Source of the DNA: a virus
Lineage: Duplodnaviria > Heunggongvirae > Uroviricota > Caudoviricetes
Virus record (IMG/VR): IMGVR_UViG_2718218104_000006
DNA length: 58,725 bases
Reading direction: 5' to 3' (one strand)
Positions 48,001 to 51,000 of the stretch are shown here, one piece after another. Each line of letters starts with the position of its first letter. Within the stretch, counting starts at the first letter, position 1. The position numbers are program-made.

Positions 48001-51000
48001 TAAAGTTATAAACACTACAAATAATATATATTACATCCAGATAAACTTATCCGACTTTACCTCGTGCATAGCTTGTTATTTAAAGTCAACAAAATAAGGA
48101 AAATTATACGCATATTGAAGAGTATAAACCTTACATGTTGATTACATTTTTGTAATCAACATCCTGTTTGGAATAGCCAGCCTTTAATGGATAACTATTT
48201 CTGACAATGCAATGAGTATAATCAAGTCCATCTTCCACTGAGAATTAGAGGCGGCATGCTTTTTCCGGCTCTTGCCGGATATCCGTAATTGTCCATAATC
48301 TGCAGATTTATACCTTCTGCATGACCTGTCAGCGAAAATTTGTCCGGTGTTTCTACGGGAATGACATCAAAAGTTACACGCACTCGCGTTACCGTGTAGA
48401 CCTACTTTCCTGCACTTGCAAGATCACAGTGGTGTAACCGTAACAGGAATTTATTCTCTGGACCGGCAGTAAATCCCTGAGTGGCGTGGTTCCCATATCA
48501 ATTTCCCGCCAGGCAGCCTCCATTGCCAGCGTACAGGCTGGAGCCATGACCTGCCCTTTAAATCTGGCCCGACCATCCCACCGGACGTGTTCTTCTCCCC
48601 TGAACTTAGGTACAGTCATCTCCAGTGGCACAAAAGTGTCAGCGCCATAATTTTTGACCGTTATCGCGCTACGGATATTTTGTTGACTGGTGAAAATCAC
48701 CCCGCAGAATCAGGCTTATTCCCTTAACCTGGGCTTTCATCCTGACCGCCGCCTCACTACGACCAATCAGACTGCCGATGCATTTTACCTTCATTGTTAG
48801 TATCATGATTTCAGGCCTGCACCATCCGCTCATTGCCCGGACTTCCGACAAATCCCGGCAACCATATCCCGGTGCTTGTTCAGCTCCCGCAGCGCGGCGC
48901 AGACTCGCTCCCACTTCTGGACATGATTCTTCGCCCTACGCAGTTCGCGATTTGCCATATGCAGCGATGGCAAAATCAAATCATCTTCTCGCGTTGCAGT
49001 AAACGATGGCAGCGACTGCACAATGTCCGCCACAGTTTCTGTTTTAATATCTTCCTGTGTTGCATCTTTCTGTACCGGTAACGCAACACCGGCTGGCTGA
49101 GGAAAGGCTTTACCATCGGTTTCCGCTACCGATTCAACTTTCGGCTCTGCTGGTAAATTATCACCTGGTATGCAGTAACGAATTTTACCGTTCTGGTTTA
49201 CGCGAATCAGACGACCTTTGCTGATTGCCATTGCCAGCGTTGAAGCAACTTTGCGGGATGTTGTACCGAACAGCGTAGCCAGTTCATCCGCCGTTTGTGG
49301 TCCGCGTTGTTCAATCGTCGCGGTTAAATCGCACTCTGAGATTTTCGCTTCTGTTGCCGTGGTGGTTTCTTCTGGCGCTGGCTGTTCCTGCTGAACGTTG
49401 TTATCAGCCACACGCCAGGTGTATACGCTTTTATCAACGAAGCCAGCCTTTTTCAGTTCCCACAGCTCGTTCAGTACTTCTTCACGACTGATATCAAGTC
49501 GCGCAGCCAGCTATACCGACGTGGCTTTTCCCATCGCTTTCAGTGCGTCAAAAACAGTCTCCATAAATTTCCTCCCGGTAAAAAATCACTTCTCAACTCA
49601 AACAAAACCAGCCGCTTTCCGGCGTTCATATTCCTGTTTCAGCAACTCAATTGGCGTTGGCCCCGACGGGCGTTTGGGGGCCGCCAGTTGTCGCCGGACT
49701 GGCGGAACGCTCAGGCCGTTACTAACATGCTTTGCCCATTTCGTCAGTTGCCGTTCTGCAAGCCGTTTTAATTCCCCTTCGGTCATCTGGCGCTCAATCC
49801 CCTTTGAACGCATCTCGAGGCAAATGTGATACAGCACAGGCTGAGACCACGGGTACTTATCACTTCCGTCGTATCGCCAGGACTCATTGCGCCAGCGGCG
49901 GTACTCCTCCATCACAGCATCCACCGTCAGACCGAATGGATTGGCTCCGCTTTTCGAAATCAGTGCCACAAACTCAGCCAGGTCCGGAGGCCATGTTTCA
50001 CCCGCCCGGCAGCGGTCCATGCACTGGCGGCAGACCTGCCGGATTTGCTGCTCAGTCATCGCGCCAATCTGTGCAATCCAGAGCTTCGAAGGTGCGGCCC
50101 CGTTCTTCTGGATCCAGCGGTTCGAATAAACCACCCCCATGAGTTCCCACAGCTTCCAGGCCGTTTCCGTCGCTGATAAATCCGTTTTCACGTTCCCACT
50201 GCTCACGTGCTGCCCGAATTTCCTGAACTGCCCGTGATGCGGTGCCACCTGGTGCTGCTGCATGGTTTACCCCTTTGCTGACTGGTTTAACCTGCGCCCT
50301 GACGTGATTTACGTGACGGGCGAATTTCTGCTCCCACTGAATCTGCGTAAACACTTTCCCCTCCGCTGCCCAGTAGTCCCGGAAGGCGGCAAGTTCAGCA
50401 GGTGTAAATTCTGTCTCCGGCAAAGCCATCCCCCACAACGCAGCCCGTCGTCGAAAATCCCGTGACGGATACCAGCTATCGCTCATCGGGAATTTTCCGA
50501 TGGGTTCGCTCAGGCCATACAGGAATACAGGGGGGGCTGCCTGTAACGACAAAACTTCCTGCTCACTGGTCGGAGCACTCTCGCGTGCGTTATGTGTGGG
50601 GTTTAGATCTTTGGGTTCCTTTGGGTTCCGTGATCCGTTTTTGGGTGTCTTTGATGGAAAATTTGGGTGTCTTTGGTTATTTTCCATGCAGCTAAGAGTT
50701 CTGTTTTTGGGTCTGTTTTGTGCTGAAACATAACCATTTTCGGTACTGTTTTTATTAACAGCACCAATTTTACCCACCTTTAAAGACTCCCGTTTTTGGG
50801 TGTATTCAGGCTCGGCAACACTTTCTTCTACACCGATAAGTCGGTACACCACAATTTGCTTTGTTCTGCCTTTTCTCTCACCGGTATCAACAATTAACCC
50901 AATCTCCATCAGGTGTCGTAAGCTGTCCTGCACAGTCTTTTTGTTCAGTTCCGTTACTTCTGCCAGTGCAGATACAGACGGGTATGCACACAAATCGGCA

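Follow-up and report, generated by a model that had tools for sequence, protein, structure and literature searches.

Previously, overexpression of ydaW from the Rac prophage has been reported to block the RcaT toxin of retron-Sen2 (bioRxiv 10.1101/2020.06.22.160242), and a catalogue of predicted E. coli transcription factors (PMC9308461) places YdaW among those of unknown function. Beyond this one hit of an overexpression screen and the catalogue of predicted transcription factors, no functional characterization of DUF1627/ydaW was found in the literature. The family resides in lambdoid and Rac-type prophages (PHROG 630), and its full-length members measure about 225 to 260 aa. The present study concerns a copy of this gene in a 58,725-nucleotide stretch of viral DNA (IMG/VR record IMGVR_UViG_2718218104_000006; hereafter, the window). 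The window copy agrees with the family members in its length, in its N-terminus (METVFDALKAMGKATS.ELAAR), and in its site directly after a helicase-loader gene. In contrast to them, it carries a TAG at the codon of the conserved Glu18. The full-length architecture is encoded in the DNA, but it is interrupted by this codon-18 TAG. Judged from its sequence, the window copy is a pseudogene of the DUF1627/YdaW family and not a functional member. Very probably, we are looking at a genuine, lineage-fixed change of Glu18 to TAG that inactivates the gene, a case of ordinary prophage decay that would have been inherited neutrally.

By sequence comparison, the window represents an Sp9/ompW-type lambdoid prophage of E. 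coli O157, inserted at ompW. In the Sakai genome, the query locus belongs to the element annotated as “prophage Sp9; lambda-like phage,” and the early region is 99.7 to 99.9% identical to Sakai and EDL933. The window is nevertheless not the Sp9 of Sakai itself, as the late region reaches an identity of only ∼97% with Sakai and includes an extra IS3-family element. The genes follow the order DicA-like repressor, Cro/DicC, YdaT, O (DnaT-like), P-like helicase loader, and the DUF1627 gene, after which come a 54-aa ORF, a fimbrial pseudogene, paa/adfO, and hokD. A preliminary description, made from the sequence alone, had assigned the gene to the early region, and its location directly after O and P agrees with this. 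The upstream neighbour is the lambda-P-like helicase loader gene (49598..50059, minus strand; from the annotation and a phrog_109 match). Directly upstream of the gene in every annotated relative inspected is a replication protein P, a DnaC-like protein, or ydaV.

The disrupted gene is read from the minus strand. Its original Shine-Dalgarno sequence, GGGAGG (49571..49576), recognized from the sequence and its score of pairing with the anti-Shine-Dalgarno, stands before the ATG start at 49564-49562. Codons 1 to 17 (49514..49564), translated as METVFDALKAMGKATSV, give the same N-terminus as in the intact orthologues and are the sole segment for which efficient translation remains. Codon 18 is the amber TAG (49511..49513), with T at 49513 where the ancestor had G. 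From there, the frame is open through codons 19 to 244 of this DUF1627/YdaW-family gene (48833..49510), as seen by translation, Pfam, and an AlphaFold2 model. These 226 sense codons specify the remainder of a first winged helix, a second winged helix, and a long C-terminal helix, and they end at the natural stop of the gene, a TGA (48832-48830), which forms an ATGA overlap with the ATG (48833-48831) of the next ORF. This downstream 54-aa ORF (48669..48833, minus strand) is annotated and matches phrog_30109, of unknown function. The preliminary description had reported a strong Shine-Dalgarno sequence, an ATG at 49564, a TAG at 49511-49513, and a long continuation of the frame; its coordinates and features were all correct.

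The frame is not a chance ORF, since the 244-codon frame taken as a whole gives a very strong Pfam DUF1627 match (E = 8e-93) and thousands of proteins of 244 to 257 aa align with it end to end. PF07789 (DUF1627) covers residues 84 to 236 of the repaired protein with 308.7 bits (cut-off 28.1), and phrog_630, of unknown function, matches at full length over residues 1 to 242 (E = 2.5e-121). A word-indexed search returned 2,727 homologues, the best 120 of which are almost all 244 to 257 aa long and start with METVFDALKAMGKATS[V/I]ELAAR. When HMMER was run exhaustively on 1.84 billion cluster representatives, only 176 matched at E ≤ 1e-3, which makes DUF1627 a small family. Furthermore, we aligned 43 distant full-length relatives with 26 to 67% identity to the query. 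The conserved N-terminal domain aligns from the first residues of the query in all 43, so that conservation of the N-terminal winged helix extends to relatives with just 26% identity; Met stands at position 1 in 35 of these relatives, seven have one extra residue, and one has a longer extension. The preliminary description had named orthologues starting at the GTG at 49411 as the finding that would speak against it, and the N-terminal alignment of the 43 relatives gives the opposite result. The same conservation rules out a native short isoform beginning at this GTG.

The AlphaFold2 model, built from a 111-sequence alignment, has a mean pLDDT of 65, with 80 to 87 in the folded parts (residues 1-45 and 80-130). 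It places winged-helix 1 at residues 1-52, followed by a disordered linker, and winged-helix 2 at residues 76-132 (49339-49169, minus strand). Residues 136-195 are predicted to be disordered, and residues 199-243 to form one long C-terminal helix (48970-48836, minus strand). Both winged-helix regions are predicted to have the order helix-strand-helix-helix-wing, and codon 18 falls in helix 2 of winged-helix 1. In Pfam, residues 4-46 matched HTH_20, Crp, TrmB, and MarR, all below threshold (HTH_20 scored 25.9 bits vs. a cut-off of 27; HTH_Crp_2, TrmB, MarR, and others also stayed below their gathering scores). A Foldseek search of the PDB gave no match at E ≤ 1e-3; its local matches, with TM-scores of up to 0.84 relative to the target, were to generic winged helices, namely MarR/ArsR, FeoC, Z-alpha, and tandem ScpB (3cuo, 4awx, 2mlg, 3gfi, and others). 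Thus, residues 1-52 and 76-132 share the winged-helix fold with MarR/ArsR-type regulators, FeoC, and ScpB. In contrast, membership in the MarR/ArsR-type regulators fails at the sequence level, and the arrangement of two winged helices and a C-terminal helix is specific to DUF1627. The model, the Foldseek matches, and the sub-threshold Pfam HTH matches thus bear out the earlier naming of a winged-helix gene as far as the fold is concerned. Considering the two winged-helix domains and the long C-terminal helix of the model, the intact 244-aa protein is presumably DNA-binding, and the long helix probably mediates dimerisation.

The intact orthologue (BCI48946.1, WP_000450692.1) occurs in PPompW phages and in the ompW prophage of E. 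coli O55:H7. It shares its prophage type, integration site, and neighbours with the window copy, and 734 of 735 bases are identical. It has GAG (Glu) and a 244-aa protein, whereas the window copy has TAG. In the phage collection, eleven PPompW prophage records match the 871-bp query from the locus at 99.9%. One of these, PPompW_14040, has the gene annotated as an intact 735-bp CDS from the same ATG, and a base-by-base comparison over 871 bp gave one difference, T in the window vs. G at 49513. O55:H7 strain USDA5905 shares the prophage context and has the intact 244-aa gene (WP_000450692.1), whose sole mismatch with the window gene is base 49513, a G there. This one-base distance from intact orthologues over 871 bp bears out the suggestion of the preliminary description that a single nonsense point mutation struck an otherwise intact gene. 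Its proposal of an ancestral CAG (Gln), which called for a comparison of codon 18 in orthologues, has to be given up, as every intact orthologue examined has GAG (Glu), and CAG is ruled out as the ancestor. The mutation is thus a G-to-T transversion that turned GAG (Glu18) into the amber TAG. Conservation of Glu18 is high: about 108 of the 120 closest homologues have it, it reaches at least 90% among 111 close homologues, and 37 of the 43 distant full-length relatives share it. More distant copies are all nearer to G than to T, as a query with GAG raises every identity band.

The distribution of the two alleles was determined with an 81-bp query centred on codon 18, by exact matching in 5,426 complete E. 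coli genomes. The TAG allele was found in 293 complete genome records and the GAG allele in 266. All TAG records with a serotype label are O157 (the serotype was read for about 100 of the 293), and the sorbitol-fermenting O157 strain 493/89 carries TAG, as confirmed from its sequence. The GAG records include O145, O111:H8, O121, O103, O55:H7, ETEC, and others, and no O157 label was found among them. TAG was present in every O157 genome examined, and the 871-bp query is 100% identical in many complete O157:H7 genomes, including Sakai and EDL933. Accordingly, the mutation arose after the lineage had separated from O55:H7 and before sorbitol-fermenting O157:H- and O157:H7 diverged from each other, with clonal inheritance since; this timing is based on the direct inspection of one O55:H7 and one sorbitol-fermenting genome. 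A sequencing or assembly artefact at 49513 has a practically negligible probability. Complete genomes numbering 293, sequenced independently by many laboratories and on many platforms, have the same T, which rules out a sequencing error, and the truncated protein models are present on at least 1,000 public contigs. The T at 49513, for which a check of the reads had been advised, is thus genuine, as identical 81-bp sequences in 293 independent complete genome records attest.

To compare the initiation signals, each candidate start was scored by the pairing of its 22 preceding nt with the 3′ end of the 16S rRNA and ranked among 16,000 positions. The ATG at 49564 reached −10.3 kcal/mol, in the top 0.6% of these positions, and the corresponding values were −3.8 kcal/mol (34th percentile) for a CTG at 49510 and −1.5 kcal/mol (77th percentile) for the GTG at 49411. 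Ribosomes that start from the strong Shine-Dalgarno sequence and ATG would stop at codon 18 and release a 17-residue peptide. Little or no protein would be made from the 226 remaining codons, because no ribosome-binding site lies downstream. The ATG of the 54-aa ORF scored −3.6 kcal/mol and has no Shine-Dalgarno sequence of its own; as this ATG also overlaps the upstream TGA, the ORF was probably coupled to the DUF1627 gene. It would have lost this translational coupling and is probably poorly expressed now. A scan of the whole window with Rfam gave no match overlapping 49411-49564, and promoter and terminator scans at the site stayed at the background level; an RNA element or a programmed recoding signal is thereby ruled out. 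Programmed readthrough or suppression is likewise without support: the relatives have Glu and not a stop at this codon, and the window encodes no suppressor tRNA (its tRNAs are Arg(tct) and Met/Ile(cat) only). Most likely, therefore, the gene is simply inactivated, presumably with no product.

It has to be considered whether the undamaged part of the frame is still translated. Restarts after early amber codons occur without a good Shine-Dalgarno sequence, as in lacI and T4 rIIB, where restart proteins have been documented. By analogy with lacI and T4 rIIB, an early amber and an in-frame GTG downstream would here too leave a product that has lost its N-terminal DNA-binding module and kept the oligomerisation part. 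The GTG in question, codon 52 (49409..49411, minus strand), is the first in-frame ATG, GTG, or TTG past the TAG and lies 100 nt beyond the stop; it serves as the start in the Sakai re-annotation (ECs_5720, 193 aa). The other candidate, the CTG adjoining the TAG on its 3′ side (49508..49510, minus strand), is the start chosen by PGAP (WP_077744273.1, 226 aa). Re-initiation at the GTG, or at the CTG, would give an N-truncated protein without winged-helix 1 and with the DUF1627 region, as the Pfam region (residues 84-236) lies wholly inside the restart product. The preliminary description had expected that a restart at the GTG would delete the first helix-turn-helix segment; in the model, the deleted part is exactly winged-helix 1, residues 1-52. 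Such a product could retain a partial function or hinder paralogues of co-resident prophages, and several related copies do exist in O157 genomes (up to 8 matching places per genome). In contrast to lacI and T4 rIIB, the candidate restart codons of the window gene have no ribosome-binding site: both are without a Shine-Dalgarno sequence and score no better than the background of random positions. Furthermore, the distance of the GTG from the stop is considerable, CTG is a very poor initiator, and none of the 43 distant full-length relatives starts at the GTG position. The annotated starts are choices of software and not evidence. Considering both sides, a restart product is unlikely. The preliminary description had left open whether the protein is lost or re-initiated at the GTG; the in-frame GTG does exist, but the Shine-Dalgarno support for its use does not. 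As an extension of the restart, a low-level product from the GTG could pair with DUF1627 paralogues that further lambdoid prophages of O157 encode and, as a dominant-negative modulator, affect how the prophages interact, which we regard as highly improbable. If true, such a product could aid the unusual stability and the cross-complementation of the defective-prophage pool of O157 and could help to explain why the TAG is universal in O157.

Readthrough of the amber by a suppressor tRNA of host or prophage, or by a near-cognate tRNA, would instead give full-length protein in useful amounts. The rest of the frame is undamaged, and the stop stands in the context UAG-C, one of the weaker contexts for termination in E. 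coli. However, as long as no suppressor is present, an amber codon is typically read through at a rate well below 1%, and, as noted above, the window supplies no suppressor tRNA, so that the chance of such a protein is extremely slim. A different reading accepts the loss and makes it advantageous: inactivation would have lessened prophage replication or induction, or the conflict with co-resident lambdoid prophages, and would have swept through O157. The presence of TAG in every O157 genome seen, the early-branching sorbitol-fermenting clone among them, is in keeping with a sweep, and stable retention of Sp9 matters, as it carries important effectors (nleA, nleH, nleF, espM1, and paa). However, O157 is a young clone in which founder mutations become fixed by descent alone, and other genes of the same prophage are broken too. 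Nor has an independent recurrence of this or a similar early stop been demonstrated in other lineages with the prophage, and 266 records retain GAG. Selection for the loss is therefore quite improbable, and neutral inheritance of an inactivating mutation remains the preferred reading.

Asadulghani et al. 2009 (PMC2669165) reported defects of Sp9 in its repressor, in which the peptidase domain is missing, and in recombination, portal, and head functions; its spontaneous excision nevertheless persists, and other prophages help to package it. Further annotated pseudogenes in the same element include the fimbrial gene, nleG2-1, nleG9, an integrase fragment, and transposase fragments, and in the EDL933 element, minor tail protein L and J are also annotated as pseudogenes. 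In the O157 genomes inspected, the frame has no further damage besides the TAG. O157 copies differ by 0 to 2 changes per 7 kb, and since their divergence is so low, the undamaged frame says nothing about selection. A nonsense mutation in an early-region gene is in line with the general decay of a defective but still mobile, effector-carrying prophage.

The reference annotations, which start the gene at the GTG in Sakai and at the CTG in PGAP, hide the pseudogene, and the truncated “proteins” have been widely propagated: the intact form, the 193-aa model, and the 226-aa model are each present on at least 999 contigs. Studies of DUF1627/YdaW should therefore prefer the intact 244-aa form of O55:H7 and the PPompW phages over the O157 models. 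The base at 49513 also makes a clean clonal marker, with T denoting O157, including sorbitol-fermenting O157:H-, and G denoting O55:H7 and the other serotypes with ompW prophages. The biological importance of the finding is small, as it adds another broken gene, in a family without established function, to a prophage already known to be defective. Thus, the locus is an ordinary, clonally inherited pseudogene, the wider use of which lies only in marking the lineage and in its warning about annotation.

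The pseudogene status of the disrupted DUF1627/YdaW-family gene is masked by reference annotations. The NCBI PGAP model (WP_077744273.1, 226 aa) begins at a CTG codon (49508-49510, minus strand) directly 3′ of the TAG, and the Sakai re-annotation (ECs_5720, 193 aa) begins at a GTG codon (49409-49411, minus strand) that lacks a Shine-Dalgarno sequence. Each of these two truncated models is found on at least 999 public contigs, in a tally capped at 1000. Furthermore, a public protein of 231 aa (P0099) has the N-terminus MAARLDIS, corresponding to the model that starts at the CTG after the TAG, but differs at its C-terminal end. 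This combination suggests that the TAG allele is also carried by a recombinant version of the disrupted gene. When complete E. coli genomes were searched with an 871-bp query around the amber site, up to eight matching places were found per O157 genome; these multiple matches are presumably DUF1627 or P paralogues belonging to other lambdoid prophages.

In the sorbitol-fermenting O157 strain 493/89, a small cluster of differences surrounds the start codon (L005, the locus sequence of this strain, 3985-4000, corresponding approximately to window 49550-49575). Here, GAA ACC replaces the GAG ACT of the window, and one additional A is present upstream of the ATG. Despite these differences, the TAG is common to both copies. 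The differences near the start codon resemble a short tract acquired from a paralogue by recombination.

A second decayed gene adjoins the disrupted one, namely, a fimbrial-protein pseudogene (about 48130-48700, minus strand) located between it and paa/adfO (47212-47970), for which the PGAP annotation of EDL933 records a frameshift and an internal stop. In addition, the DnaT-like replication gene O is flagged as frameshifted in O55:H7 USDA5905 (L004, its locus sequence, 2483-3501) and in O157 493/89 (L005 2461-3500), and is intact in Sakai and EDL933. The two frameshifts may have arisen separately as true defects, or they may be errors of sequencing in homopolymers. Downstream of paa/adfO, a sok antitoxin RNA (46874-47023, minus strand, 104 bits) is paired with a hokD-type toxin gene.

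Two Rfam matches adjoin a tRNA pair, Arg-tct (42009-42085) and Met/Ile-cat (42166-42241). These are the anti-GcvB small RNA AgvB (41630-41689, plus strand), whose 56.6 bits barely exceed the gathering score of 56, and the small RNA STnc100 (41691-41899, minus strand, 175 bits).

An IS3-family insertion sequence with orfA and orfB (37629-38842, plus strand) lies between the lysis genes and a 635-aa ORF (39635-41542), and contains the frameshift pseudoknot (ALIL, 37910-38026). Sakai Sp9 lacks this element at the equivalent place, which spans ~0.45 kb as against ~2 kb in the window. The late region, encoding packaging, head, and tail functions (22492-37574), is ~97% identical to Sakai Sp9, whereas the identity exceeds 99.7% in the early region. 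Judged by this disparity in sequence identity, the prophage is therefore a mosaic, one that probably originated by recombination with a co-resident lambdoid prophage.
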